DNA from: Candidatus Bathyarchaeota archaeon
Lineage (GTDB): Archaea > Thermoproteota > Bathyarchaeia > Bathyarchaeales > Bathycorpusculaceae
Assembly (NCBI GenBank): GCA_963775685.1
Contig: CAVZJV010000005.1
Location: forward strand, 64,001 to 128,000
Direction: 5' to 3'
DNA length: 64,000 nt
This document shows, in pieces, positions 55 to 55,556 of the stretch. The notes beneath the pieces were generated by a model. The model did no database searches and was not told the DNA's origin. It saw only the letters and a list, made by a program, of their open reading frames with translations. Positions within the stretch are counted from its first letter, which is position 1. Every line of letters starts with the position of its first letter. Position numbers and translations under genes: made by a program.

Positions 55-339
55 CTACCGTGGAGTATTTTCTTTAAGTTTTTGTTTTGATTTCTCGATT
101 ATTTCACAGATTAGACCTGCGGTGTCGTCAAGCATTTTCTTGAGTTTCTTCATGTCTTCTTCAACAATTTCTCGGTTTTCTAGAAGCGGGTAGACGCTCA
201 CGTGTATTAGGTCGAATGTGGCTTTTATGTCAATTTTTCCGGTCCTTTTTTGATCCATGACCGACTTTAGTATTTTTTCTCTTTTTGCGATTTCCTCAAT
301 CTTTAACTTGGGTTTATCGCTACTTAGGCTTCTGCTCAT
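55..339 (-). CDS. Hypothetical helical protein, last visible gene of the isoprenoid/lipid cluster
   Basis: 94-aa ORF whose start directly abuts the stop of 340..1527. Confidence 0.6.
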   Translation of the reverse strand: MSRSLSSDKPKLKIEEIAKREKILKSVMDQKRTGKIDIKATFDLIHVSVYPLLENREIVEEDMKKLKKMLDDTAGLICEIIEKSKQKLKENTPR

Positions 340-1527
340 TTACATAACCACCTCAATCTCTGGAATTTTCATTCCACATAAGTTTAATCCCTTGATTTTG
401 ATTCCTTTTAAGACTAAGTTTAAGTCCAGCTGGTTGGCAATTGCGGAATCTGTGGTAACTGATCCGTTAAGATTTGAAAATTCCAAGCCACCTTTGACTC
501 TCATTATCATTTTGGTGATATGAAGAGTTAATGCCCCGGTAATGTGGGCTCTGTCTGCGTCGCCGTGGAGGGCAACTCCTGCGCCATACATTTTTTTGGA
601 AGTTGATATTGTCACTGGAGTCGTAGATTGTGCCTCGAACGCTTGGGTGGTGACAGAAGGAATTGTAACATTTAAGGCAGTTATGTTTTTCATTGAAGCT
701 TGTGGGCTTGAAATTCCAGTTGAATCCATTTCATCTATACTTGTTTGATCCGTTGCTATGTCGTTAGGACCCATGGGATTGGGTACAGGTAGACAAAGTC
801 CAATGCTAATTCCCAGAGGCGTATCAATAGGAATACTGGTGCATTTCATTTGAATATTTTCAGCGGTAACTTGGTCGATCTTTGTTCCTCTTATCGGATC
901 AGGCGTCATTGAGAACGGACCAATAGAAGTCAAGGAAGAAAGCATTGAAAATTGGCCAGTGCCAAACAAAACATCTCCCAAAGAATGTTTCTCAACATAA
1001 GAATCAAAATCCACCCCACCTGAGACGCCATAACAAAAATCTGACCAACAGATAGGCCAAGGCAGATCAATGTTACCTGAAAAGGTCGTGCTAATGGATA
1101 AAGTAATTTCTAACTCTACATTTTTTGCTTTGCAGGAATCATACTTAAAGGTCCCGCTAAAGTTTTTCAATCGAAGGCTTGGAATCGATATTTGCCCAAT
1201 CTCTATTTCAGCAACAGAGAGAGGCCCGCCAATGCTGGAAGCAATTTCTGACTGCGGTATAACTGCGCGGGTCGTAACCTTTTCTTGTCTAGGCCGACAG
1301 CGCATCGTAGGCGGAGGGCAATCGCAGCCTTTTGATGGTATCTTTGGTAAGTCAAAGCAAACTTTTTCTGTTTTTACATCTATTTTGGGTAAGTTTAGAC
1401 ATACTTTTTGAGTTTCGATGTTTGGCACTGGGATACAGATTTTTTGGTCTGTTGTGGTAGCGACAGAAGTTACTTCTTTGGAAATATTCTCTGGCAAAAC
1501 TTTTTTTGTTCTCGAGCTTTTGCTCAA
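340..1527 (-). CDS. Uncharacterised beta-strand-rich protein with N-terminal Cys-containing repeats
   Basis: 395-aa ORF with three tandem (Q/E)K(I/V)Cxx(L/V)PxI repeats, then alternating hydrophobic/polar strands. No signal peptide is obvious. Confidence 0.75.
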   Translation of the reverse strand: MSKSSRTKKVLPENISKEVTSVATTTDQKICIPVPNIETQKVCLNLPKIDVKTEKVCFDLPKIPSKGCDCPPPTMRCRPRQEKVTTRAVIPQSEIASSIGGPLSVAEIEIGQISIPSLRLKNFSGTFKYDSCKAKNVELEITLSISTTFSGNIDLPWPICWSDFCYGVSGGVDFDSYVEKHSLGDVLFGTGQFSMLSSLTSIGPFSMTPDPIRGTKIDQVTAENIQMKCTSIPIDTPLGISIGLCLPVPNPMGPNDIATDQTSIDEMDSTGISSPQASMKNITALNVTIPSVTTQAFEAQSTTPVTISTSKKMYGAGVALHGDADRAHITGALTLHITKMIMRVKGGLEFSNLNGSVTTDSAIANQLDLNLVLKGIKIKGLNLCGMKIPEIEVVM

Positions 1528-1630
1528 TTGCTTGACCCCATTTCTATGTATGACTTATTGTTATTTATCGTTTTTGTTAAGATGCTCGATTGGTAAATAA
1601 CGATGAGAACTATAGACGTTTTTACTGTTG

Positions 1631-2029
1631 CTAACGTAGTTTATATGTTAAGAAGTAGAATCGAGGTGACATTCTTGAAAGACGTAATATCTGCTCAAAA
1701 ATTTTATAGCATTTTAGCAGTGTTGCGGGTTCTCCAAATGCCTCAATTTTCCCTGATTGAAGTGCGTTGTCGAGGGTAATTCTGCCTTCAAGAAGGTCAA
1801 ACAGGCCTATCCTCGAAAGGATTATGTGTACATCAATTTTTTTGGGTTTATTTTTTTCTCCGATAACAACGTCGTCAGAGGTGACGTGAATTACAGTAAT
1901 CTCATTGTCGAGAGTTTGAAGCCAAGTTAAGCCTTGAGTATCCTTGACAATTTTTTGGAAGTACAGTGGATAATCTTGTTTCATTAACGCTATTAGTTCT
2001 CTAAGAAACTGTTCAAGCTTCAATTGCAT
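1631..2029 (-). CDS. SCP2 sterol/lipid-binding domain protein
   Basis: C-terminal 'LFDLLEGRITLDNALQSGKIEAFGE' fits the SCP2 pattern. The ATG at 2029 overlaps the end of the upstream gene. Confidence 0.7.
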   Translation of the reverse strand: MQLKLEQFLRELIALMKQDYPLYFQKIVKDTQGLTWLQTLDNEITVIHVTSDDVVIGEKNKPKKIDVHIILSRIGLFDLLEGRITLDNALQSGKIEAFGEPATLLKCYKIFEQILRLSRMSPRFYFLTYKLR

Positions 2030-3140
2030 AGCTGTTAACCCTCTTTCGTGGTCGAACTGACTCAAACCAGCAAGGAAGAACAGAATCATATTTTTGGCCA
2101 TTTATCTTCCCCCTGAGGTCTGCTTCACAGAACATTTCGTTGAAAACAACTTCTGAAGGACTCATGAGACTAGCGTTGACTACACTGCACACAGCTTTGG
2201 GGGTAAATGTAATTTTAAGTTTGTCGGCACCCTTAGAAGCGGCAAATGTCAAGTTCTTCGATATTGCAGGATGGTAATCTGGATAAAGCAATTGTGTAAT
2301 TGCCGGCATAATGCTCAGGTTACCATCATACTTCCCTTTTGTGGCTATTTGCATTTCTGCGTTATCAAAGAATTGTTTTTTCCCACTCTTGCTTTCAAAA
2401 AAGACTCCGCCATAGGAAAGATCGTCTGTGTCTCCGTAACGATAAATAAGAAAGTCTATCCTCTCCGGCTCCTGGGCAGCTAAGGGATCACAAAAGATGA
2501 CGCCAGTGTCCCAGCCCCAAGTCGTTCCTATGTCGAAACATCCACCTTCATGGTCCTGATACCCCTGGCTAGTTTTAATTTGATAAGTTTTTTTGTCGAG
2601 CTGTAATTTTCCTTTAACAAGTAATCTTGGTAGCTCCACCCAGTTTTCCCATTGGCGGTTCATTTCTTGGGCAGCCAGAAGCATCTTTGCTTTAGGATCT
2701 TGCACTTTGAGCACATCAATAAATATGTCTTTGTCCGTTACGGGAGGCAGAGCAACCTTAAAATTAAGGTCAAATGAAGTTTGCTCCATCTTCCCTATAA
2801 CTTTGAAAGAATTGTCTTTTAGCAAATTCACCGAGAAACTTTCACCAATAAAGTTTGGGTTGTAGGATGAAACCTCAAGATGATTCATGGGTATTAGCTT
2901 TATTTCAGAATAAATCTTTCCAGTGGGGTCGACAATGTACGCAAGTACTGAGCCCCAACCTCGTTTCGAATCGTAAGGATTGCCATGTATTCCAAAGTTT
3001 AAAAGACCGAATACCCGTTTTTTCCGGTCAAAAAACACGAAATCATGCCATTCCTGGTATAAGCTAACTTTTGTGTCAAAGATTGAGGGTAGAGTAAAAG
3101 CATCGACGCTGGCCGTGTCTTCTACACGGTATAAAGTCAT
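2013..3140 (-). CDS. CrtC/tocopherol-cyclase/AttH-like beta-barrel protein
   Basis: 'QEWHDF' near the N-terminus and 'GYQDHEGG...WGWD' resemble the EWxY and GYxDHxWG-type motifs of this fold. Confidence 0.55.
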   Translation of the reverse strand: MTLYRVEDTASVDAFTLPSIFDTKVSLYQEWHDFVFFDRKKRVFGLLNFGIHGNPYDSKRGWGSVLAYIVDPTGKIYSEIKLIPMNHLEVSSYNPNFIGESFSVNLLKDNSFKVIGKMEQTSFDLNFKVALPPVTDKDIFIDVLKVQDPKAKMLLAAQEMNRQWENWVELPRLLVKGKLQLDKKTYQIKTSQGYQDHEGGCFDIGTTWGWDTGVIFCDPLAAQEPERIDFLIYRYGDTDDLSYGGVFFESKSGKKQFFDNAEMQIATKGKYDGNLSIMPAITQLLYPDYHPAISKNLTFAASKGADKLKITFTPKAVCSVVNASLMSPSEVVFNEMFCEADLRGKINGQKYDSVLPCWFESVRPRKRVNSYAIEA

Positions 3141-3574
3141 TAGGACGACGGCTCGATGTTAGTCTCTTCAGGATTCGGAGCAGCTTTTTCTATGATATCA
3201 ACAGCCCTATTGGAAACTTTTTGCACAAGAGTTAAGAGCTCTGTATTGAATTGGATATAAAGACGCATCATGTCAGCAACAGAGTTGCTCACAAGCTCGG
3301 TCATTTCTTCGTTGTCTAGTTTGCCCATACGGGCGGTCACTTTGCTCAATCTTTGAGCTGTCTGAACAGTGTTGTTAACTGAAGCCTGAGTTAACTTGGT
3401 TAGTTGGTCTTTGTACTCAGGATTGTTTAGGGTAGAAACGATTTGGTCAATGGCTTTCTGCACAGTTTTTGGGTTTGGCATTACTGTTTTGGGATTTGCT
3501 TCTGCGGCATTTTTGGTCCTTGCACTTGCTTTTTTGGTTGTTTGAGCGCTCATTGTTATCTCCACTTTCATCAT
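3140..3574 (-). CDS. Hypothetical amphipathic helical protein
   Basis: 144-aa ORF, translationally coupled to 2013..3140. The start may be the ATG at 3553. Confidence 0.6.
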   Translation of the reverse strand: MMKVEITMSAQTTKKASARTKNAAEANPKTVMPNPKTVQKAIDQIVSTLNNPEYKDQLTKLTQASVNNTVQTAQRLSKVTARMGKLDNEEMTELVSNSVADMMRLYIQFNTELLTLVQKVSNRAVDIIEKAAPNPEETNIEPSS

Positions 3575-3589
3575 CTCTGTTGGTTGTAT

Positions 3590-4615
3590 TTATTTTTTCC
3601 GCTGAATCAGGTAGTTCGTCTGTTCGAGAAAGAAATCTTTCCACCTTTTTTCGACTATCCAGTCGCATTCATTTAGCAAAACGTTCTTTGCTTTGGTGGC
3701 GAATTGATTTGCAGTTTTTCTAGCATATTCAATGGAACCGTATTTTTGCATAAGATCTCTAACATACATCACATCCTCTTCTGTCTTGATTTCTCGAGGT
3801 GTTTCCAATATTTTTCGAATACGGTCTTTCTCTTCTTGAGTACAAGAGTTAAGAGTGTGAATAAGCATGAGAGTTCTTTTTCCTTCCAAAATATCGCCAT
3901 CGATCTCTTTGCCATAAAGGTCCTGAGACGCTGTAAGGTTCAGAGTGTCATCGGTTATCTGAAATGCTATTCCCGTGTAGAGAGCATACCTAGTTATGGC
4001 ATCTAATTGTTTAGGAGTTGCCTCATCTAACCCAATAATTATCCCTGTTCTGCATGGGGTAATAATGGTATACCAACAAGTTTTATTCTCGCAGATATAG
4101 TAATAATCTTCAGGCTTCAAATCAACCCGATTATCTCTAACAAAAGTTAACTCAGTTATCTGCCCTTCTACACTTCTTCTTGCGGTCTCCTGTATTTCCA
4201 TGATTATTTGCAAAGCTTTCCTAACGCCTATCGACGCCAAGTTGTCAACAAGTGGCGACATTGCAAGGATTTTCACCGCGTCCCCTGCATTCGCTGCCAA
4301 AGCAAGACCATACTTTCTGTTTAGAGTAAGGTCGCCGCGTCGATAAATCGATTGATCAACAATATCATCCTTTATTAGAAACGAATTGTGCAAAAGCTCA
4401 ATAGCCGTGGCAGTGTTTATCGCATTATTGTAGTCGCCACCCACTGATGCCGCCGCTGCAAGACAAAGCAAAGGACGAATCCCTTTTCCTGGTCTAGTGG
4501 GATAGTCAGCCAAGAGTTCGTATGCTAACGTTTTTGATCCAAAGTTACGTTTAAGATAGTACTGCATCCGAACAGCTACTTTTTTCTTCATCTTGGACAG
4601 AACTAATTCGCTCAA
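3590..4615 (-). CDS. Polyprenyl (isoprenyl) diphosphate synthase family
   Basis: GKGIRP, first Asp-rich motif DDIVD followed by RRG, GQ, KT, second motif variant FQITDDTLN, and DILEGKRT. Confidence 0.92.
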   Translation of the reverse strand: MSELVLSKMKKKVAVRMQYYLKRNFGSKTLAYELLADYPTRPGKGIRPLLCLAAAASVGGDYNNAINTATAIELLHNSFLIKDDIVDQSIYRRGDLTLNRKYGLALAANAGDAVKILAMSPLVDNLASIGVRKALQIIMEIQETARRSVEGQITELTFVRDNRVDLKPEDYYYICENKTCWYTIITPCRTGIIIGLDEATPKQLDAITRYALYTGIAFQITDDTLNLTASQDLYGKEIDGDILEGKRTLMLIHTLNSCTQEEKDRIRKILETPREIKTEEDVMYVRDLMQKYGSIEYARKTANQFATKAKNVLLNECDWIVEKRWKDFFLEQTNYLIQRKK

Positions 4616-4696
4616 GCGAAGACCAACCCCTCATAATACCCAATATTCATAGATAACCTTTGTCCAGTTATTTTAGGAGAATAAAGCATGCATAAG

Positions 4697-6190
4697 TTAG
4701 TTGGATTTCGCTTTCTCCTCGGTTTCTAAGTAGTTTGAAGACGATGCGATTGCAACGTTTATTGCGCTTGTAGCGGATTTAATGAACCAATTGATGAAGG
4801 CAGATGGGTTCTGGGTTGCTTGAACAGTTATTTCGAAGCCTGTTTGGAGAGCTTCCATTGTAGCTTTTGCCAAGGCATTTGGATCTTGGATTGCGTCGAG
4901 CAAATTTGTGGGCCCTTTTGATAATAGGGCTTGTTCAATTGTTCCCTGGGCGACCTCCAAGTTGGTAGCTTCGCTTTGAGGTACGGTTCCCATTAGGATG
5001 CCTCCGACGATATCAGCATATCTCGGATCCGCTTGTGAACGTGCAGCCATGAGTTCCATTGAACGGAGCCAAAGTGAATTGAAGCTTCGATTTCTTATCA
5101 ATTGAACTATTAGACTTGCAAGTGACATTCCGTATCGAAGTTCTTTCTCAACAAAACTTTGGTATGTCAACAAAGCTTCTTTGGATAAATCGTCGGCTAT
5201 CAAACAAGAGATTGCAACTTCGGAAGCCCATCTGCCACTAAGAAGGGCGTATTGAATTCCTTCTCCGTTTAGAGGATTCACTAAACCCGCGGCATCGCCT
5301 ACAAGCATTACTCGATTGTCAACCAATGATTGGTTTGCGTTATAGGTTGTTAAAGGCCAACCTTTTATCGGCCCGATCAATTTAGCGTTTCTAAGGCGTT
5401 TATGCAATGATAAATCATTCTCGATGAGTTGATTTAGAAGCTCGTTCAAGCGTTTACCAGAAGGTATGGTGTCTAAGACCATGCCGACTCCTACGTTAGC
5501 TTGGTTTTTGCCCGTTGGGAAAAGCCAGCAGTAACCGGGAAAACTTTCTTTGTTGAAGTGCAGGTCAGCATGATTTGAAGAACCATCTACGTCTTTGAAG
5601 TATCCGCGTATGGCAATTATTCTGTCTGCACTCGAAGGAGGGTGCCCCCTGACGAGTTTGGCAATGGTTGAGTTGCTGCCATCCGCACCGATTAAAAGGC
5701 GAGCTTTTAATATTTTTTTACCCGAAGGTCCCTCTACCTGTAACTCAACGATTTTGCGCTTTGTGTGCATACCTACTGCCTTTAATCCCTCAAAGAAAAC
5801 AGCCCCTTCTTTGATGGCTGCGTCTAAAAGTAGTTTATCCAAAATAAAACGAGGAACCACACGCCCGTATCTGGGAAGACCTTGAACCTTTGGCACGGAT
5901 CTGGAAATCAATTCGTTGCCATCCAGATAAACTGACGCTCTCCTAATGAGGTTTGACCTCTTAAATTCAGGAGAATTTGCAAGACCCAACCTTCCAAGCT
6001 CAATTTGTGCTACAGGACTCACAAAGTCACCGCAAACTTTGTCACGTGGAAATTTACACTTGTCAACGAGAATCACATCATAACCCGCAGATGCAAAGTA
6101 GTAAGCAGCAGCAGAGCCGCTAGGTCCAGCACCAACTACGATCACATCGCTATCATATTCTTGTTTTTTGTCTAATAGAATGATTATCAC
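4697..6190 (-). CDS. Geranylgeranyl reductase family FAD oxidoreductase with helical C-terminal extension
   Basis: GAGPSG, FPRDKVCGD, GADG, GYCWLFP and VGDAAGLVNPLNGEGI motifs. Confidence 0.9.
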   Translation of the reverse strand: MIIILLDKKQEYDSDVIVVGAGPSGSAAAYYFASAGYDVILVDKCKFPRDKVCGDFVSPVAQIELGRLGLANSPEFKRSNLIRRASVYLDGNELISRSVPKVQGLPRYGRVVPRFILDKLLLDAAIKEGAVFFEGLKAVGMHTKRKIVELQVEGPSGKKILKARLLIGADGSNSTIAKLVRGHPPSSADRIIAIRGYFKDVDGSSNHADLHFNKESFPGYCWLFPTGKNQANVGVGMVLDTIPSGKRLNELLNQLIENDLSLHKRLRNAKLIGPIKGWPLTTYNANQSLVDNRVMLVGDAAGLVNPLNGEGIQYALLSGRWASEVAISCLIADDLSKEALLTYQSFVEKELRYGMSLASLIVQLIRNRSFNSLWLRSMELMAARSQADPRYADIVGGILMGTVPQSEATNLEVAQGTIEQALLSKGPTNLLDAIQDPNALAKATMEALQTGFEITVQATQNPSAFINWFIKSATSAINVAIASSSNYLETEEKAKSN

Positions 6191-6632: not shown

Positions 6633-7121
6633 TTGTCAGAATTAGCCAACAGCTGTGAATACTTAACAAGTGAGAAATTATGCTTAGCTGTTTTAGAAAG
6701 CGAGAAAGCAAAGGCAGCCAGGCAGGAGCGATGCAAAAATGAAGAGAAGACGACCTGTTGCTATCTTTGCATGTTCGTGTTTAACTGTGCCACTCCCTGT
6801 CGGTTTTTGGGAAAAGGGGAGAGCGAGCTAAACCAAATCGACTCTGAAAAAACCCGCATTGAAAACATATCCATAAGTGAACAAAAACCCGAAGAGCTCA
6901 AAACAAAAAATTCACCTGTAACCCGCTGCTTGTTATGTGACGTCGAGATGTCGCAAGCTCGAACTAAGTTTAAGATAGAGGGTTTGGAAAGATCAGGTCA
7001 AGAACTTTCTGAAGATGACTCAGGGCAATTGGAAAAGGAAGTGCTGCCTGTAATAGTTTATCTCTGTCCAAAATGTGGTAAAATCGAGTTTAAGGCGGAT
7101 GAAAAACTAAGCAAGGACTAA
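6633..7121 (+). CDS. Cys-rich zinc-binding protein
   Basis: N-terminal Cys cluster plus a C-terminal CxxC...CPKCG ribbon. Confidence 0.65.
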   Translation: MSELANSCEYLTSEKLCLAVLESEKAKAARQERCKNEEKTTCCYLCMFVFNCATPCRFLGKGESELNQIDSEKTRIENISISEQKPEELKTKNSPVTRCLLCDVEMSQARTKFKIEGLERSGQELSEDDSGQLEKEVLPVIVYLCPKCGKIEFKADEKLSKD

Positions 7122-7657: not shown

Positions 7658-10600
7658 TTGACGCAGTTGGGAAGAAACCTCTTCGACACATTGAATAAAT
7701 TTATTATAAAGCGGCATCGCTTGATAATCATTGCCTGGATTATTGCTTTAATTGTTTCGTTAAGTTTGGTTCCCAGTTTTTTTGGGGCAGTTTCATACGA
7801 CATTACAGGCGGTTTTGCCGCTCCCACAAATAGCCAATCCGAAAAAACATCACACATACTAAAGGCTCAGTTTCCAAGTTCTCAAAACCAAAGCGCCAAC
7901 AGCATCCTACTTGTAGTTCATGGCACACAGCCGTATTCCGATGATTTAAGGAAAGCTATACTTGACCTAAACCAAACAATCTCAAAGGACCAAAGCATTG
8001 TGAACTTTACAGGGGAATCCAGCATCTACTCCACCGAGTACAGCTTACTTAATTCGTCAATTCCAAGCATTCTGCCACAAGTTGACGCCCTAGAAAATAA
8101 CATAAGCTCCATCAACACAGGCGTCTATTCATTAGCGACAAACTTGGCTCCACTAAACGCAAACATTTTTCAAACCATCGAAGGAATCAACCAGACCGCT
8201 CAACTGGTCTTTGGGATTCCAGCGGCTTTTGTGGAAGTGTGGCAGGGAATAACCAGTCAAGGATTAACTGACCCATACCTTGCAAACTTTCAAGCCAACG
8301 TAACCGCCTACCAAATCACAAACAATTTCGGAGACGACCCAAGCTCTATCGGCTACTACTCTGCATTCTTTAACGTCTGGAATGCCAGCTTCCTAAGCCT
8401 TCCAAGCAACGCTAGCTCTGTTCAAGACAGGGAAGCTTTGGCTATTAACCAATCAGTCACGCTTTTTTTGGGCAATACACAATTAGATGAACAAACTAAA
8501 CAAATCGTAACAGCAGTTGGTTCAGGCTTGACAGTTTCAAGTTGGAGCCAAAGCGAATCCATCACAAACTTAGCTAAGTCAACAATAGCCTCAAGCATTC
8601 CATCCGACCTGTCAACTCAACTGGCCATCACACCTCAAACCCTAATCAACCAACTCTACAGTTTGGGAGCCGCACCCTCAAACGCTACAATTTTGAAGTA
8701 TGCAATTAACTTGACTGTAAACTCGATGGGAAACCTTACAGACAGCGACATCGGTTTTTCGCCCTCACAACTTGTAAATGAAGCCGTCAACTTGGGTTCA
8801 TCTCCAAGCTTCAAACAGCAATGGATGCTTTCGTGCGAATTTATCGCAAACGCTACCCAAAGCGCATTCGTGGATTCTCCCCTTTTCTCAATTAATAGCT
8901 CTTCCTTAGCTACTTTGCTTTATGTTCTGCCACAAAGGGCCACCTTAACCGAAATCGATGCGGCAATCGAAAACACAATCGCATATCAAAACTATGTTAG
9001 CTACCCCTACAAACCAACCCATGCAATCACCCAAAACTTTGTTGGCACCGACAACAACACGGTGCTTATCATTTTGGGCTTCTCTTCAGAACCAGATGTC
9101 ACATCAATAGCTCAAATAAAGTCAGCCGTACAAAACTCAGAATTGCAAAACCTAGGAACAACCTACGTTACCGGGTCACCTGTTCTCGGTCGCGACATCG
9201 AAAACACCTTCATACCCGCACTTGAACTCACCGTAGGACCCGCGATCGCCATTTCTTTGTTGATTGTCGGACTCTTATTCTTGGCACCTTTAGCCGCGAT
9301 TATCCCGATCATTTTAGGAGGTTTTTCGACAGTTATTTCTCTTGCTTCGATCTATTTTGCAGTGGTTATAGTAGGTAAAGGCGACATAACATTCCTTACA
9401 CCCACTCTGACCATCCTTCTTCTGCTGGGATTAGCAGTTGACTACGCGGTCTTGCAGCTTAGACGAACAAGAGAAGAGAGACAACAAGGCAGATCGGTAG
9501 AAGAGAGCGTAGGGCTCTCCGTCCGTTGGGCTGGGCAAGCTGTGCTTACCGCAGGAATCACAGTCATCGTAGCGTACATAGTAATGGCAGTTGTTAACGT
9601 ACCTATATTCAGCGATGTGGGAACTGCTATTGCCATCAGCGTCTCCATTCTGCTTGCAGCCTCCTTAACGCTGCTACCTGCACTTGAAATCGCTTTGAAT
9701 GATAAAATTTTTTGGCCGGGACTAGGCAAAAACAAAAACATCTCCTCCAATTCGCCGCGTTTAAGAAACCTGGCGAAAAATATACTAAAAAAGAAAAAAG
9801 TAATAGCTATTCTAATAAGCGGGTTGGCTTTGGGCGCATTCTACTTTGAATATACAACACCCACCGGCTCAGACTTCCTAAAACTCATACCAAACTTTTC
9901 CAGCAACCAGGGCTTAACGGTTATATCGAACAGTTTTGGAGGCGCATCCATCAGTCCAACCACCATTGTGGTAACAACCCCCACTCCTGTATCCTACGGC
10001 AAAAACCAACTAAATCAAACTCTCATGGACCAACTTGAATTGGTAGCCATTTCAGTCGCTAACTCGCCCAATGTAGTCACAGTGATTGGCCCCACAAGAC
10101 CGTTTGGTTCCTCTTTCAACTATTCAGGGCTATCAAGCATGTCTGACACGCTTAAGCCGCAATATGAAAGCCAAATCTACTCTATGATAGGGAAAGACAA
10201 TATGACCGTTCGAATCACGGTGGGACTCGCTAACGAATCGCAAAGTCAGATTGCTATGACTTCGCTTCTTCAAATGGAAAAGAAAATTAATGCGCTGGTA
10301 CTTATTGACGGGGTCACAGTTAATTTTGGCGGAGAAACCCAATCCTCGATAGACAGCAAAGCCTTTATGGCAAACCTGCTGCCCGAAGTCGTCGTTATCC
10401 TCTCCGTTGCAGTGTACATAATCTTATTTGTGCAACTTCGGTCAGCCTTCACCCCTCTACGGCTAATTTTCACCATACTCTGCAGCGTAGCTTTTGCGAT
10501 AGCTATTCTCTCAGCAGTTTTCTTCTATGCCAGCAATTTGCCAATCCTCGACTTCGCACCCCTCTTTGTGGTAGTAACTATGCTAGGGGTAGGAATAGAC

Positions 10601-10924
10601 TACGACATATTCTTTGTAACCCGAATACGCGAAGAAGCACTCAAAGGAAACACAGACGATGAAGCCATAAAAACAGCCGTCGAAAAAGTTTGGGTAACCA
10701 TTCTGGGGTTGGGATTAGTTCTTGCCACCGTCTTTGCGTCCTTGATCATAACAGGCATCGCACTTTTGCAAGAAATCGCCTTAGCTGTATCAGCCGCCAT
10801 AATCATCGATGTTTTGGTGGTTATCCTGTTTTTTGTGCCTTCCCTGATGGGGTTAGCACAGAGACTTAACTGGTGGCCACATAAAACCTCAAAAACTCCA
10901 CAAGACACTACAGAAAACACCTAA
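7658..10924 (+). CDS. MmpL/RND family transporter
   Basis: 1088 aa with two membrane repeats carrying GLAVDY and GVGIDYDIF motifs and large extracytoplasmic loops. Confidence 0.9.
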   Translation: MTQLGRNLFDTLNKFIIKRHRLIIIAWIIALIVSLSLVPSFFGAVSYDITGGFAAPTNSQSEKTSHILKAQFPSSQNQSANSILLVVHGTQPYSDDLRKAILDLNQTISKDQSIVNFTGESSIYSTEYSLLNSSIPSILPQVDALENNISSINTGVYSLATNLAPLNANIFQTIEGINQTAQLVFGIPAAFVEVWQGITSQGLTDPYLANFQANVTAYQITNNFGDDPSSIGYYSAFFNVWNASFLSLPSNASSVQDREALAINQSVTLFLGNTQLDEQTKQIVTAVGSGLTVSSWSQSESITNLAKSTIASSIPSDLSTQLAITPQTLINQLYSLGAAPSNATILKYAINLTVNSMGNLTDSDIGFSPSQLVNEAVNLGSSPSFKQQWMLSCEFIANATQSAFVDSPLFSINSSSLATLLYVLPQRATLTEIDAAIENTIAYQNYVSYPYKPTHAITQNFVGTDNNTVLIILGFSSEPDVTSIAQIKSAVQNSELQNLGTTYVTGSPVLGRDIENTFIPALELTVGPAIAISLLIVGLLFLAPLAAIIPIILGGFSTVISLASIYFAVVIVGKGDITFLTPTLTILLLLGLAVDYAVLQLRRTREERQQGRSVEESVGLSVRWAGQAVLTAGITVIVAYIVMAVVNVPIFSDVGTAIAISVSILLAASLTLLPALEIALNDKIFWPGLGKNKNISSNSPRLRNLAKNILKKKKVIAILISGLALGAFYFEYTTPTGSDFLKLIPNFSSNQGLTVISNSFGGASISPTTIVVTTPTPVSYGKNQLNQTLMDQLELVAISVANSPNVVTVIGPTRPFGSSFNYSGLSSMSDTLKPQYESQIYSMIGKDNMTVRITVGLANESQSQIAMTSLLQMEKKINALVLIDGVTVNFGGETQSSIDSKAFMANLLPEVVVILSVAVYIILFVQLRSAFTPLRLIFTILCSVAFAIAILSAVFFYASNLPILDFAPLFVVVTMLGVGIDYDIFFVTRIREEALKGNTDDEAIKTAVEKVWVTILGLGLVLATVFASLIITGIALLQEIALAVSAAIIIDVLVVILFFVPSLMGLAQRLNWWPHKTSKTPQDTTENT

Positions 10925-49468: not shown

Positions 49469-50956
49469 TCAAATCTTTTTGTCGTCGACTCTTGGCGCCT
49501 CTTTGGGTATTTTGGAGTTAGCCAGGGCATCCTCGATGGTTTTTCCTTCGCTTATCTTCATGTCGTAAGCTGAGGCATAATTTCGGGCATTTTCAGTCAG
49601 ACCGGGTATAACAAATATCAGCGAATCACATTCAATATCATTTATCATGCCGTAGATTCGGGTCATTTCTCGCACATCAAGGGGTTTGCTGGAAATTAAA
49701 ACTTCAATGACGGTGTTGCCATTATCTTTCCGCAATGCAGATTTTCTTATAATCGGGTTAAAGGGCTCTATCCACCCAACTCTGCCTAACACAAGAATAT
49801 CAAACAAGTGCTGAGTGCCAGACCTTCCGCTCACAAACGCCGGAGTAACAATAGTATATCCTAAAGACTTGAAGAAATTAGCACAGACTTCAATGGGTTT
49901 TATCTGCTGTAGTTCCTGCATGGTCAATTCAGAGTTTGCAGTATACTCGTAGAGGAGCACTTCAGGTTCTTCATCGAGTTGAGCTGTTGATCCACAGTCG
50001 TCGCATTTAACCACCAGCAAAGGTTCCTTGCTTCGAACGTTACAATTAAGACATGTGTACGCAGTAGGCAACACTCGGTAATCTGAGCCAACAAGCTGTA
50101 ATTTGTCTTTGCATTTGGGACACACAAGGTCTTTATTTGCAGTTTCAAATACAGTTTGTGTATCTATAGTTCCGCAAGAGAGGTGTTCTATGATTCCTTC
50201 TTTGCGTAACCTCAACGATAAACATTCAGGACACAACTTCTTGATTCTAACGCTTGCAGAGGCACATGCCACGCAAACGACAACTTTGTCTATGAGCTCT
50301 GCTTTTAGGAACCCCTTTCGAACAAGGGAGTTAAGTGTCTGTCTTGCCCTTTTAGTATCCCAATCCAACTGGGGAAAACCATCATAGAAATAGCCCTCGG
50401 GTCTTGACGAGTCGGCGATAGGCACAATTTCTTTAACCTTTCCGTAGAGGAAAAGCTCCATTAGGTTCTGTTCATCTTTCCGCAATCCTTGCTCATCAAC
50501 AAAATCTGTGATTTCTTGATTTTTTGGCAACATCGATGTCGAGGTCCCGCCATTCATAAAGGTAACCTCGTTACCGTTATTGCTGAATCCATTGCTTGGT
50601 TTTTTGGAACTTTTTAACTCAGGAATTTTCAACTTATTTTTGCGTTTACTACGTAATTCATCTATCCTCAATGCCACTACAAAGCCTACGGATAAAGAAG
50701 TCTCTAGAATCAATATCAATATTATTGCTACCATAAATGGGGCGTTTGACCCAAGGCCGGTCAAGGACGTTAATGCATAGTAGAAACTGTCAAAGAAATA
50801 GATGGAAACTATACTTGCACTATAATAAAATGCGGGTATGGAAAGTCCAATTCCTGAAATAATTGAAAAAACGTATAAGGCCAAAACTTTTCTTTTCAAA
50901 GTCTTAATCGGAACTACCTTAAATACGAACCCTAGAAGGAGTCCTATAAGAAGCAT
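49469..50956 (-). CDS. Membrane-anchored multi-zinc-finger (TackOD1-like) protein with a C-terminal restriction-endonuclease-like fold
   Basis: N-terminal TM helices, a CxxC/HxxCG/CPKC array, and 'GRSGTQHLFDI'. Confidence 0.6.
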   Translation of the reverse strand: MLLIGLLLGFVFKVVPIKTLKRKVLALYVFSIISGIGLSIPAFYYSASIVSIYFFDSFYYALTSLTGLGSNAPFMVAIILILILETSLSVGFVVALRIDELRSKRKNKLKIPELKSSKKPSNGFSNNGNEVTFMNGGTSTSMLPKNQEITDFVDEQGLRKDEQNLMELFLYGKVKEIVPIADSSRPEGYFYDGFPQLDWDTKRARQTLNSLVRKGFLKAELIDKVVVCVACASASVRIKKLCPECLSLRLRKEGIIEHLSCGTIDTQTVFETANKDLVCPKCKDKLQLVGSDYRVLPTAYTCLNCNVRSKEPLLVVKCDDCGSTAQLDEEPEVLLYEYTANSELTMQELQQIKPIEVCANFFKSLGYTIVTPAFVSGRSGTQHLFDILVLGRVGWIEPFNPIIRKSALRKDNGNTVIEVLISSKPLDVREMTRIYGMINDIECDSLIFVIPGLTENARNYASAYDMKISEGKTIEDALANSKIPKEAPRVDDKKI

Positions 50957-53802: not shown

Positions 53803-55556
53803 TTAATTAAACATCCGAACTTGCGGGAACTCACTTCTTGGAAGCTTGATAGGCAAGTTAATAGTGATAGTTGTTCCTATACCAACCGCGCTTTTTACAG
53901 CAATCTTTCCGCCATGGGCTTCCACAATCCGCTTGCATATTGCCAGGCCCATTCCCATTCCTTTTGCCTTGGTGGTTACAAGGGGGGAGAAAATCTTTGG
54001 CAAAATGTCCGCAGGTATGCCTCTACCCGAATCAGTGAAAGCTATTTCGATATCTTTTTCCTTCAATACATTTTGTATTTTTATTATTCCTTTTTCCGGT
54101 TGAGCGTCTACGGCGTTTTTTATAATGCTAGTGAAAACTTTCTCTATTCTTTGCGCATCAAGAAACATTTTGTTTTCACTCGTTGCGTCGTTTATTATGT
54201 TAATGCGATCTGGAACTTGAATAGCTGATAGGGAATGCAGTACAAGCGAATTAGGTGTGCACTGCTCCGGCTGCAAAAATAGTTCGCTCGCTAATCTACT
54301 AAACTGCTGATGATTCTATTCGAGTCTTCAATTGCGATGTCCATAGTTGCCAAAGTCGCATGCATTTCAGTTTCCGTGAGTCGCCCGCTTTTCTTTCTCA
54401 GAATGTATACGGAGTTTTTGAGTCCTGCTAATGGGTTACGTAGGTCATGTCCAACCTGCCCTGCTAGTTCGCCAATGGATGCAAGCCTTTCAGCTTTAAC
54501 GAGCATTTCCTCCATCTTTTTGTGTTCAGTAATGTCGTGAATGATGCATGCCATCCCGATGGCTCGTCCCGTTTTGCTATGGACGATGGAGCCAGAAAAA
54601 AGTACATGCCGTTTCTCTCCTGATTTAGTTTGGAAAATTAGTTCATGGTTTCGGATGATTTCTTTTTCCGAAAACACTTTCAAAACTTTCTTACAGGATG
54701 TTGCTTGGGTTTCGTCACACAACTGCACGATTGATTTGTCGATCAATTCTTTATCTGAATAACCCAAGAAATCCATTAACCGTTCATTCACTCTAAGAAT
54801 TTTTGACTCCGTATCCGCTAAGATTAGAGAGTCAGGTATCGTTGAAAGAATGTTGTCTGCTGCTAATGCCGCGTCAAAAGTAAATAAGTCATACTTAACA
54901 ACCGCGTATCCAACAAAACAGCTAAAAAACAAGGTAGCTATGAACCCAAGATTTGGAATATCCATGTCAATCATTCGCGCCACCATGTTGGTACTTATGA
55001 ATGCGGCAATAGGGATAGCGAAGCCTATCGTAACATATTTTCTCCGCTGCCTTTGAAGGGTGTCATTTGCCTGACGATAGTATCTGAAACATAAAACAAA
55101 GGCCAAAATTGGCAGCGCTATGGTCCAAATAATGGAACCATAATAAATCCAACTTCCTGAAGCAACGTCATTATACCCCCAATACTCCATGACTGGAGAT
55201 CTATTTATTAGGCTAGTGGAAAAATCGATAAGCCAAAATGCCACAGCGGGTAAAAATAAGATTAGGTAGTTTAGCTTGTTTTTTATCCATTTGTTTTCTG
55301 TGAAAACCAGTCCTAAAGTAGCTACTAGAGCTACGAAAAAAGGCCATATGGTGCCCATCTTGTTCCAGAAAGACGCACTTGCTAAGTCGGTTGCTGTCCA
55401 CATCATAACTGTCGTGAATGAATAGAAAAAAGCAGCTAAAGCTGTCAAAAGGAAGATTTTGTTGAGAATTGATTTTCTGTTAAATGAGTATACGATTATG
55501 CCTAGAAACAAGCAACTAATGCTTGCGAATAACGAAAGCGCAGCAAATATGTTCAC
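53803..55556 (-). CDS. Membrane sensor histidine kinase (7TM-PAS-HisKA-HATPase), split by a one-base deletion near 54291
   Basis: About 7 TM helices, PAS, HDLRNPL. Restoring TAC gives VDYASELFLQPE, in frame with the N, G1, F and G2 boxes (DSGRGI, TTKAKGMGMGL). Confidence 0.85.

Follow-up and report, generated by a model that had tools for sequence, protein, structure and literature searches.

A conserved archaeal gene cassette that joins a prenyl diphosphate synthase to an AttH/CrtC-fold protein and an SCP2-like partner

We describe a block of seven genes, g1 to g7, in a 64,000-nucleotide stretch of a Candidatus Bathyarchaeota archaeon genome (GCA_963775685.1, contig CAVZJV010000005.1, positions 64,001 to 128,000; G000:C5:64001-128000 in our numbering), which we refer to as the window. 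Four genes of this block, in the order g2-g3-g4-g5, encode a trans-isoprenyl diphosphate synthase (IPPS), a protein of no recognised family, a protein with a predicted AttH/CrtC fold, and an SCP2-like partner. The arrangement is more than chance, because 28 other loci show the same order. We give a probability of about 0.5 to the interpretation that this cassette is a self-contained accessory unit that makes a modified isoprenoid in the cytoplasm. An earlier note on this DNA had proposed a dedicated pathway that makes, modifies by hydration or cyclisation, and carries a terpenoid or lipid. Our results support this proposal, except that the reductase of the pathway is a member of the cassette in Bathyarchaeia only (13 of the 29 loci).

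A conserved block of archaeal genes

The genes run in one direction on the minus strand with overlaps or short gaps, as the earlier note had stated and as the list of open reading frames (ORFs) bears out. Lengths are in amino acids (aa).

4697-6190, minus strand: g1, geranylgeranyl reductase (GGR)-family flavoprotein, 497 aa, with a C-terminal helical extension of about 110 aa
3590-4615, minus strand: g2, trans-isoprenyl diphosphate synthase, 341 aa
3140-3574, minus strand: g3, family-less protein, 144 aa
2013-3140, minus strand: g4, predicted AttH/CrtC-fold protein, 375 aa
1631-2101, minus strand: ORF of g5, putative SCP2-fold partner, 156 aa; 1631-2029 from the conserved start Met25
340-1527, minus strand: g6, beta-rich protein, 395 aa
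55-339, minus strand: g7, small family-less protein, 94 aa

The spacers between g1 and g2, g2 and g3, and g5 and g6 are 81, 15, and 103 nucleotides (nt), respectively. Base 3140 is common to the stop of g3 and the start of g4, and g6 and g7 abut (0 nt). The longest g5 ORF overlaps g4 by 89 nt. In an alignment of 15 homologues, however, the starts fall at Met25 of this ORF, which makes 1631-2029 the more likely extent of g5 and leaves an overlap of 17 nt. The G+C content of the block (0.39-0.44) is unremarkable. The earlier note had also allowed that the block might run past the left edge of the window. We fetched 14 kb to the left of the window and found that the left neighbour of g7 (G000:C5 62625-63854) lies on the plus strand and is convergent; it encodes a flavodiiron-like protein (ODP beta-lactamase, E 1.8e-28, plus flavodoxin). 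Thus, the block ends at g7, inside the window.

In a scan of 185,579 species genomes, we recovered 29 cassette loci, from 13 Bathyarchaeota, 5 Methanoperedens, 10 Thaumarchaeota/Nitrososphaerota (including Ca. Gagatemarchaeum), and 1 "uncultured archaeon". The Thaumarchaeota hosts do not belong to the ammonia-oxidising archaea (AOA). By tblastn with the window proteins, g2 and g3 are each present in 28 of these loci, g5 in 27, g6 in 26, g7 in 20, and g1 in 13, and clustering placed g7 in two more (L038, L042). All misses of g2, g3, g5, and g6 fall at contig or locus ends (L036, L040, L041). The order g2-g3-g4-g5 is invariant and is found wherever a locus has room, so that the comparison of gene neighbourhoods called for in the earlier note came out in favour of co-conservation. 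The g6-g7 pair directly follows g5 or, in Thaumarchaeota, lies inverted a few hundred bases off. The flanks are not conserved, with no other ORF cluster in more than 4 of the 29 loci. Between phyla, the cassette genes other than g2 are about 40-59% identical, and g6 falls to 30-31% in two Thaumarchaeota loci.

The reductase gene g1 follows a narrower pattern and accompanies the cassette in Bathyarchaeota exclusively. Among 81 genomes of the genus, 12 carry g1 orthologues of at least 70% identity, and the same 12 carry g4 at adjacent coordinates; the other 69 contain g1 paralogs of at most 45% identity (mostly about 30%) or no match at threshold. In 16 genomes from other families of the order, g4 was found in none. 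Five Methanoperedens and Thaumarchaeota genomes that hold the cassette contain only g1 paralogs of at most 34% identity. A distinct GGR_cat-like gene of 350 aa (E 2.8e-5) is present in four Thaumarchaeota loci. In a g4 tree of 27 rows, from which five fragmentary ORFs of less than 330 aa were left out, the Bathyarchaeia (support 100/99) and Methanoperedens (100/100) sequences each form one clade and the Thaumarchaeota sequences form two. This topology makes transfers between phyla look few and old.

Proteins of the cassette and a related metagenome version

We modelled g4 with AlphaFold2 from 20 homologues (predicted local distance difference test score [pLDDT] 81; predicted template modelling score [pTM] 0.84). 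Foldseek matched this model to AttH NE1406 (2ICH; E 1e-12), kievitone hydratase (2.5e-10), 25-phosphosteroid lyase (25-PSL; 1.5e-9), and the pericyclases CghA, Fsa2, and Phm7 (E about 1e-9). VIA-align superposed it on 2ICH with Z 24.9 and a root-mean-square deviation (rmsd) of 3.4 A over 296 of 323 residues, on kievitone hydratase 7A0Q with Z 23.0 and rmsd 3.5 A over 288-290 residues, on the decalin-forming pericyclases CghA, Fsa2, and Phm7 with Z 21-22.5, and on 25-PSL 9G4C with Z 20.6. All these matches reach Z 20-25 over 273-304 residues, compared to Z 8.7 for the next unrelated fold. The model predicts that g4 is a whole two-barrel AttH/CrtC fold. Structure prediction and fold comparison, which the earlier note had recommended, uphold its label "CrtC/cyclase-like" as far as the fold is concerned (2ICH, Z 24.9). 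The label does not hold at the level of the family, where PF07143 is lacking.

The sequence of g4 is an orphan by several measures. It falls in no Pfam family (DUF2804, E 0.0077, is below the cut-off), and its profile gave 0 matches at E <= 10 against PDB sequences. PF07143 is found neither in g4 (E <= 0.01) nor in the genome (E <= 0.001), and is absent from all 301 Bathyarchaeia genomes of an even class sample; a search of the same 301 genomes with PF17186 for a canonical AttH/CrtC or Hgs-like gene was likewise negative. The g4 profile itself found in this sample only the genome of the window and two weak DUF7064/65 proteins. In a collection of 5.8 billion proteins, the g4 family comprises 113 proteins of about 375 aa and at least 43% identity, without a Pfam family and all named "hypothetical". 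Across g4 and 27 distant relatives, which fall to 15-20% identity at the lowest, nine residues are invariant: E30, W31, G177, D196, H197, G200, W210, P279, and E360.

Two Bathyarchaeia proteins of 349 and 323 aa (L048 1165-3128 in G317 and L047 1192-2932 in G228) are faintly g4-like. Each lies directly downstream of a protein with a PEP-utilizers mobile domain (E about 1e-25), and the 349-aa protein matches DUF7065 and DUF7064 (E 1e-11 and 2e-9). The arrangement is reminiscent of anaerobic sterol side-chain activation, in which a kinase is combined with 25-phosphosteroid lyase.

Characterised members of the fold provide a chemical frame for g4, as far as the portions of the reports that we consulted extend. 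In CrtC, D268 protonates the terminal prenyl double bond and W110, W283, and W285 stabilise the carbocation (PMC12402844); 25-PSL forms an alkene by elimination of a tertiary phosphate (PMC11061730); and Hgs hydrates double bonds of glycerol dialkyl glycerol tetraethers (GDGTs) (bioRxiv 10.1101/2025.10.20.683597). In the solved relatives of g4 that are hydratases, and in the lyase, the reaction takes place at a tertiary carbon within an isoprene unit. We presume from the model that g4 is the catalytic core of the cassette and acts on an isoprene unit as a hydratase, cyclase, or lyase. The idea of "hydration or cyclisation" in the earlier note fits, because g4 has the AttH/CrtC fold.

The assignment of g5 is weaker and applies to its homologous family rather than to the window protein alone. 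With family matches counted at E <= 1, Alkyl_sulf_C (PF14864) was matched in 15 of 15 homologues (best 1.1e-5) and SCP2 (PF02036) in 14 of 15 (best 2.4e-6), which suggests an SCP2 fold for these proteins. The window g5 by itself stays below both cut-offs (SCP2, 16.9 bits vs 21.3, E 0.0084; Alkyl_sulf_C, 21.1 vs 27), and the Pfam SCP2 cut-off is reached by some of the homologues only. Thus, the SCP2 protein named in the earlier note is recovered through the homologues and only weakly in the window protein.

The strongest evidence that g4 and g5 act as one unit is that g4-like and g5-like proteins are fused in some bacteria. The g4 profile, run over 1.84 billion representatives, matched 296 proteins at E <= 1e-3 and 133 at E <= 1e-10, and 4 of the best 150 matches are proteins of 470-502 aa with an extra C-terminal domain. 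A Pfam scan of 25 profile matches returned no family for 24 of them; in the remaining one, P0459 (501 aa), the C-terminus matches SCP2 with 22.2 bits against a cut-off of 21.3. By hhalign, the N-terminal part of the fused proteins corresponds to g4 (Prob 99.1, E 1.4e-18) and the C-terminal domain to g5 over its full length (Prob 94.8, E 5.1e-8, 127 columns). The order within the fusion is the gene order g4-g5. The SCP2 partner fused to g4-like proteins in bacteria also fits the "carrier" idea of the earlier note.

A metagenome scan with the fused g4-g5 forms recovered 429 relatives, from which 80 loci were kept and the 41 loci of at least 5 kb were examined. We infer that these soil-metagenome loci are bacterial from the ESM Atlas taxa of g4 neighbours and from their G+C-rich contigs with Ala/Arg/Pro-rich ORFs. 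In the 41 loci, a polyprenyl synthase lies upstream in at least 19, a separate SCP2 ORF follows the g4-like gene in at least 16, and a protein of 650-1130 aa with a flavin adenine dinucleotide (FAD) motif lies downstream of the g4-like gene in at least 24. These counts are minimum values, as antisense shadow ORFs on the G+C-rich contigs hid some genes. An IPPS from such a locus is 37% identical to g2 and has DDxLN and KT(C/S)WY in common with it. The extra proteins of these loci match no Pfam or NCBIfam family, and in the large flavoprotein only the N-terminal FAD-binding motif is recognisable, with no sequence match in the PDB. No counterpart of g3, g6, or g7 was detectable in the metagenome loci.

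The pattern seen among loci L049-L128 (for example, L108 5466-12810) is an IPPS, an ORF of 200-290 aa, a small ORF, an AttH-like gene, an SCP2 gene, and the FAD protein. The 200-290-aa ORF has an N-terminal helix and a strand-rich C-terminal half, and some loci end in an ORF of about 200 aa. Candidate links between these proteins and the archaeal orphans did not hold. The helix "DLMRAYLQFN" of g3 resembled a helix of the post-IPPS ORF at hhalign E 0.045 and Prob 1.2, which is not significant, and g3 aligned with another small metagenome ORF at E 0.19. The corresponding values for g6 were E 0.39 against the large flavoprotein and E 0.51 against the post-IPPS ORF.

The prenyl synthase recognised in the earlier note is confirmed by a full PF00348 domain in g2 (187.6 bits against a cut-off of 27, E 2.9e-55). 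Nevertheless, g2 stays below every NCBIfam equivalog cut-off: the best, IdsA NF040698, gives 186.2 bits vs 468, and the geranylgeranyl diphosphate (GGPP) synthase equivalog NF041003 gives 169.9 vs 500. The candidate assignment as the polyprenyl transferase cargo of a Family 2 encapsulin (NF041169) was rejected at 164.1 bits vs 450. The closest solved structures are GGPP synthases, namely that of Thermus thermophilus (GGPPS; 1WMW, E 1.4e-44) and 1WY0 (E 8.2e-39). The Asp-rich motifs DDIVD and DDTLN are invariant (10 of 10 aligned sequences), the second motif DDxxN also occurs in the solved 1WMW, and the Lys/Arg residues that bind isopentenyl diphosphate (IPP) are kept. A single aromatic residue (F at -4) precedes the first Asp-rich motif of g2. 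Aromatic residues before this motif are linked to short prenyl products. These similarities suggest that the g2 product is probably C20, as in GGPPS.

In conservation, g2 stands apart from the other cassette genes. It is 68-75% identical between phyla, with a mean column identity of 82%, and the 120 best database matches are all at least 68% identical to it. By these sequence comparisons, g2 is a discrete, very conserved IPPS subfamily that appears confined to the cassette. The earlier note had asked whether the reductase and synthase might be the only housekeeping copies in the genome. The genome contains four PF00348 genes and four genes above the TIGR02032 cut-off. A separate GGPPS-type gene of 356 aa on another contig, with canonical DDIED and DDILD motifs, adjoins an FMN_dh-type gene similar to type 2 isopentenyl diphosphate isomerase (IDI-2). 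These extra copies, and the second GGPPS beside an IDI-2-like gene, imply that the cassette is not housekeeping. At G000:C14:1062725-1065800 in the same genome, there is a second pairing of this kind, in which a 348-aa GGR-family gene (176.5 bits) has a short PF00348 ORF (259 aa, 57.8 bits) about 1.6 kb away.

The reductase named in the earlier note falls in the GGR family, with g1 scoring 215.1 bits for TIGR02032 against a cut-off of 158.8 and E 3.2e-10 for GGR_cat PF22578. The closest solved structure is 3OZ2, the digeranylgeranylglycerophospholipid (DGGGPL) reductase of Thermoplasma (E 4.6e-26). The stretches KVCGD and YCWLFP, which we take to be GGR catalytic motifs, are readable in g1. 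All equivalog cut-offs exceed its scores: MenJ is best with 154.4 bits vs 700 (E 4e-45), and DGGGPL reductases give 101-109 vs 580-780. These scores and its distribution suggest that g1 is a GGR paralog specific to the Bathyarchaeia version of the cassette.

None of the three orphan proteins, g3, g6, and g7, has a Pfam or NCBIfam family. Invariably placed between g2 and g4, g3 is Lys-rich at its N-terminus and conserved in a core that spans residues 35-135. It has no Pfam match at cut-off, and its 17 members match nothing consistently (MNE1 in 7, Phasin_2 in 4 with a best E of 0.032). Heteromeric prenyl synthases have small subunits of the HexA/HepS type, and such a role was considered for g3. 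The g3 members match 46 families at E <= 1, and the 25 of these that are listed include no heptaprenyl-synthase subunit-1 family. A complex prediction of g2 with g3 (residues 30-144), run without controls, scored 0.00 against a mark of 0.32 and speaks neither for nor against such a role.

The g6 family comprises 114 proteins from the same taxa as the g4 family, with no Pfam family and no names. Its AlphaFold2 model (pLDDT 58) is nearly all strand, in agreement with the "beta-rich protein" of the earlier note, and contains long, well-predicted strands at residues 110-210 and 280-370. Fold searches with this model gave a best E of 9.3e-3 at TM about 0.1 (Foldseek, PDB), oligomeric secretin barrels at Z 4-5.3 and rmsd 9-11.5 A as the best rows of a wide VIA-align run, TM of at most 0.12 against BFVD, and no usable match in the ESM Atlas. 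Pfam scanning of 18 members found nothing consistent (LmeA in 2, DUF4097 in 1). An N-terminal Cys-rich extension of about 90 aa (1258-1527) occurs in the Bathyarchaeia and Methanoperedens forms only, and in Bathyarchaeia it contains three "KVCxxLPKIxV"-type repeats followed by CDCPPP..RC. Four Thaumarchaeota loci have a separate 111-aa Cys-rich ORF with "LPKIQI" between g5 and g6 (for example, L037 10586-10921), which may be the extension module in split form. The small protein g7 is predicted from its sequence to be helical, has no Pfam match or recognised family, and is always the gene immediately after g6, including in loci with an inverted g6-g7 pair.

Other features of the window lie outside the cassette. 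A divergent gene 1.5 kb upstream of g1 (7658-10924, plus strand) encodes a 1088-aa MMPL/RND transporter (PF03176, E 8e-71; weak HpnN/BstA-like rows). We rejected it as a cassette member, as among the 28 other loci only L027 has such a gene near the cassette. Between them, also divergent from g1, is a 162-aa Cys-rich ORF (6633-7121, plus strand) with several CxxC pairs and a zinc-ribbon-like C-terminus, for which we found no Pfam or NCBIfam match and, by tblastn of the other cassette loci, no counterpart. Two further proteins are unrelated to the block: a TackOD1 "Thaumarchaeal output domain" protein (49469-50956, minus strand, E 4.9e-36) and a 7TM-PAS sensor protein (54291-55556, minus strand). 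Finally, a scan for sigma-70 promoters and terminators gave results at or below the shuffle expectation; the sigma-70 model is inapplicable to archaea.

Proposed chemistry and competing explanations

If the cassette is a self-contained isoprenoid-modifying unit, g2 would supply a short all-trans prenyl chain, probably C20, and g5 would shield this hydrophobic chain and present it to g4. An acid of g4 (D196/H197, with E30 or E360) would then protonate a trisubstituted double bond, and W31 and W210 would stabilise the resulting tertiary carbocation. Quenching by water would give a tertiary alcohol, and quenching by an internal nucleophile would close a ring. In Bathyarchaeia only, g1 would saturate the remaining double bonds. 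The proteins g3, g6, and g7 would be scaffold or product-binding partners. We infer these steps of chemistry, and the product may be a membrane lipid or a free metabolite.

Several points weigh against this interpretation. Neither CrtC (PF07143) nor any Pfam or PDB sequence gives a significant sequence match to g4, whose putative function is read from the predicted fold and the conserved residues, and AttH-type folds also house pericyclases and proteins that only bind ligands. The probable chain length of the g2 product is read from similarity, and no role can be assigned to g3, g6, and g7, which make up half of the conserved proteins. Since no reductase lies within 9 kb of the cassette in the Methanoperedens loci, reduction stands outside the core chemistry. 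No RNA run is listed for the cassette; in three soil DNA runs from one study, 6-8% of the sampled words are present. In-frame stops interrupt some copies in the genus (G067, G063, G077), which may mean that an accessory cassette is decaying or that the long-read assemblies contain errors. Specifically, G067:C1:201589-205765 contains many stops, G063:C9:31226-32703 has two TAA codons in g1, and G077:C8:52640-53749 has one TAG codon in g4. Finally, the cassette encodes no obvious enzyme to consume the prenyl diphosphate; phosphatases, UbiA/GGGPS-type transferases, and class I terpene synthases are among the kinds that it lacks. Handling of the diphosphate is therefore unexplained, which keeps alive a reading of g4 plus g5 as a terpene synthase.

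According to that reading, g4 and g5 form a non-canonical terpene synthase that removes or displaces the diphosphate of the g2 product through carbocation chemistry to give an acyclic or cyclic terpene alcohol or hydrocarbon, and the remaining proteins bind or store the product. The absence from the cassette of any other candidate consumer of the prenyl diphosphate speaks for it, as does the retention of the IPPS, AttH-like, and SCP2 trio in archaea and in the putatively bacterial loci. Moreover, 25-PSL (Z 20.6) indicates that an AttH fold can cleave C-O-P on an isoprenoid side chain, as far as we consulted its description (PMC11061730). The substrate of 25-PSL is, however, a tertiary monophosphate and not a primary allylic diphosphate, and alkenes are the substrates of those structural relatives that are hydratases. 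We regard a terpene synthase as unlikely. We think it rather unlikely that g4 plus g5 represent an unrecognised class of terpene synthases/cyclases that takes the product of the dedicated prenyl synthase directly, in archaea and perhaps soil bacteria, with archaeal g3, g6, and g7 forming a soluble particle for terpenoid storage or delivery.

Alternatively, the cassette could tailor membrane lipids. As an Hgs-like hydratase, g4 would hydroxylate archaeol or GDGT chains, or the unsaturated precursors of these, at tertiary carbons, and the dedicated IPPS and GGR would control the supply and the degree of saturation of the chain to be hydrated. This explanation draws on the sections of the Hgs preprint that we consulted, in which Hgs is the only characterised archaeal AttH-like enzyme and its homologues occur mainly in anaerobic methanotrophic archaea (ANME) and other Methanobacteriota and in Bathyarchaeota, overlapping the hosts of g4 (bioRxiv 10.1101/2025.10.20.683597). 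It is also consistent with the linked GGR paralog in Bathyarchaeia and the GGR_cat-like gene in four Thaumarchaeota loci. By contrast, the hgs gene overlaps ted, a type of gene neither conserved across the 29 loci nor seen in the window; inspection of the cassette translations revealed no recognisable membrane segments; and the cassette also occurs in the putatively bacterial loci, where GDGTs would be absent. Together, these observations leave membrane-lipid tailoring rather improbable.

It is more doubtful still that g4 is non-enzymatic and that the cassette is a system for binding, transport, or storage of the g2 isoprenoid, or a lipid-particle coat for it. AttH NE1406 was proposed only as a lipid-binding, calycin-like protein in the portion of its report that we consulted (PMC2954199), and four of the six core proteins lack an enzyme signature. 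The faint phasin-like matches of g3 (4 of 17) and the long strands of g6, with oligomeric secretin barrels as its best weak structural rows, point in the same direction, but both sets of matches are within noise. Furthermore, the polar Asp-His, Glu, and Trp residues of g4 do not vary even in relatives with less than 20% identity, a pattern typical of catalytic sites. Tailoring of a prenylated quinone or quinol, by chromanol-type ring closure as in tocopherol cyclase or by side-chain saturation as in MenJ, is highly improbable: the Atlas neighbour cluster of g4 (score 0.95) has Tocopherol_cycl in 23% of its members and MenJ ranks second among the NCBIfam rows of g1 (E 4e-45), but Atlas scores are leads only, MenJ reaches 154 bits against a cut-off of 700, and neither the window nor the ORF clusters common to the 29 loci include an aromatic prenyltransferase or quinone-pathway gene.

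The cassette is mobile and self-contained and is assembled from parts of known kinds, namely an IPPS, a GGR, an AttH fold, and SCP2. What appears undescribed is the combination of genes, the IPPS subfamily private to the cassette, the orphan proteins g3, g6, and g7, and the orphan AttH-like family, in which the SCP2 partner is obligate or fused. The earlier note did not recognise a characterised pathway here, and that assessment stands: no equivalog cut-off was reached and literature searches turned up no account of the cluster. The closest published work is the Hgs preprint (2025), whose supplements lay outside the search. Archaeal isoprenoid chemistry beyond the core ether lipids is still being mapped, and the first archaeal AttH-type lipid hydratase came only with that 2025 preprint. 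In this setting, g4 represents a second, sequence-orphan family with a predicted AttH fold and no curated family, and g6 has no recognisable fold. The hosts are uncultured archaea of soil, peat, and groundwater (Bathyarchaeia, Methanoperedens, and non-AOA Thaumarchaeota) whose lipids serve as biomarkers. The product could therefore add a lipid or terpenoid marker for these groups, and g4 could add a cofactor-free enzyme for regioselective hydration or cyclisation of alkenes. The core from g2 to g5 is small (about 3 kb), which makes it directly testable by heterologous expression.

Relation to known systems

CrtC (PF07143) and kievitone hydratase (7A0Q, 7A0T) resemble g4 in their full-length two-barrel fold and in substrates that contain isoprene units. 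Cofactor independence is expected in both cases, as are a conserved acid and Trp, although the residue equivalence to CrtC is putative. Unlike CrtC, g4 is soluble, has no detectable sequence similarity to that family, and is tied to its own prenyl synthase and SCP2 partner instead of carotenoid genes; as the earlier note had observed, there is no crtB or crtI in the window.

Hgs, the hydroxy-GDGT synthase of Garcia et al., is like g4 in being an archaeal, AttH-like protein concerned with isoprenoid chains in overlapping hosts (Bathyarchaeota and ANME-related archaea). In the consulted part of the preprint, which used BLASTP E <= 1e-80 as its similarity criterion, the hgs gene overlaps ted, encoding a B12-dependent radical S-adenosylmethionine (rSAM) desaturase, and lies near grs (bioRxiv 10.1101/2025.10.20.683597). 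By contrast, g4 is flanked by g3 and g5, has an IPPS ahead of it, and lacks an rSAM partner. No rSAM gene is conserved beside g4 in the 29 loci; the only rSAM-like neighbour is a 535-aa ORF in three Methanoperedens loci, which from its sequence is probably Elp3-like.

25-PSL (9FZN/9G4C) has the same fold as the g4 model (Z 20.6), and DUF7064 and DUF7065 are the nearest Pfam-defined sequence relatives of g4 (profile E about 1e-3; Atlas 0.94). Those proteins work with a kinase or a phosphoenolpyruvate-utilising partner in degradation, in contrast to g4, which has a biosynthetic IPPS and an SCP2 partner. The synthase g2 shares PF00348, DDxxD plus DDxxN motifs, and IPP-binding Lys/Arg residues with the GGPPS of T. 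thermophilus (1WMW) and with archaeal IdsA/GGPPS; unlike these enzymes, it appears to be a discrete subfamily confined to the cassette and reaches no equivalog cut-off. For g5, UbiJ and UbiT are an instance of SCP2-assisted synthesis, that of ubiquinone. The C-terminal domain of alkylsulfatase (PF14864) is, like g5, a small SCP2 module placed beside or fused to an enzyme for a very hydrophobic substrate, but the enzyme partner of g5 is predicted to have an AttH fold.

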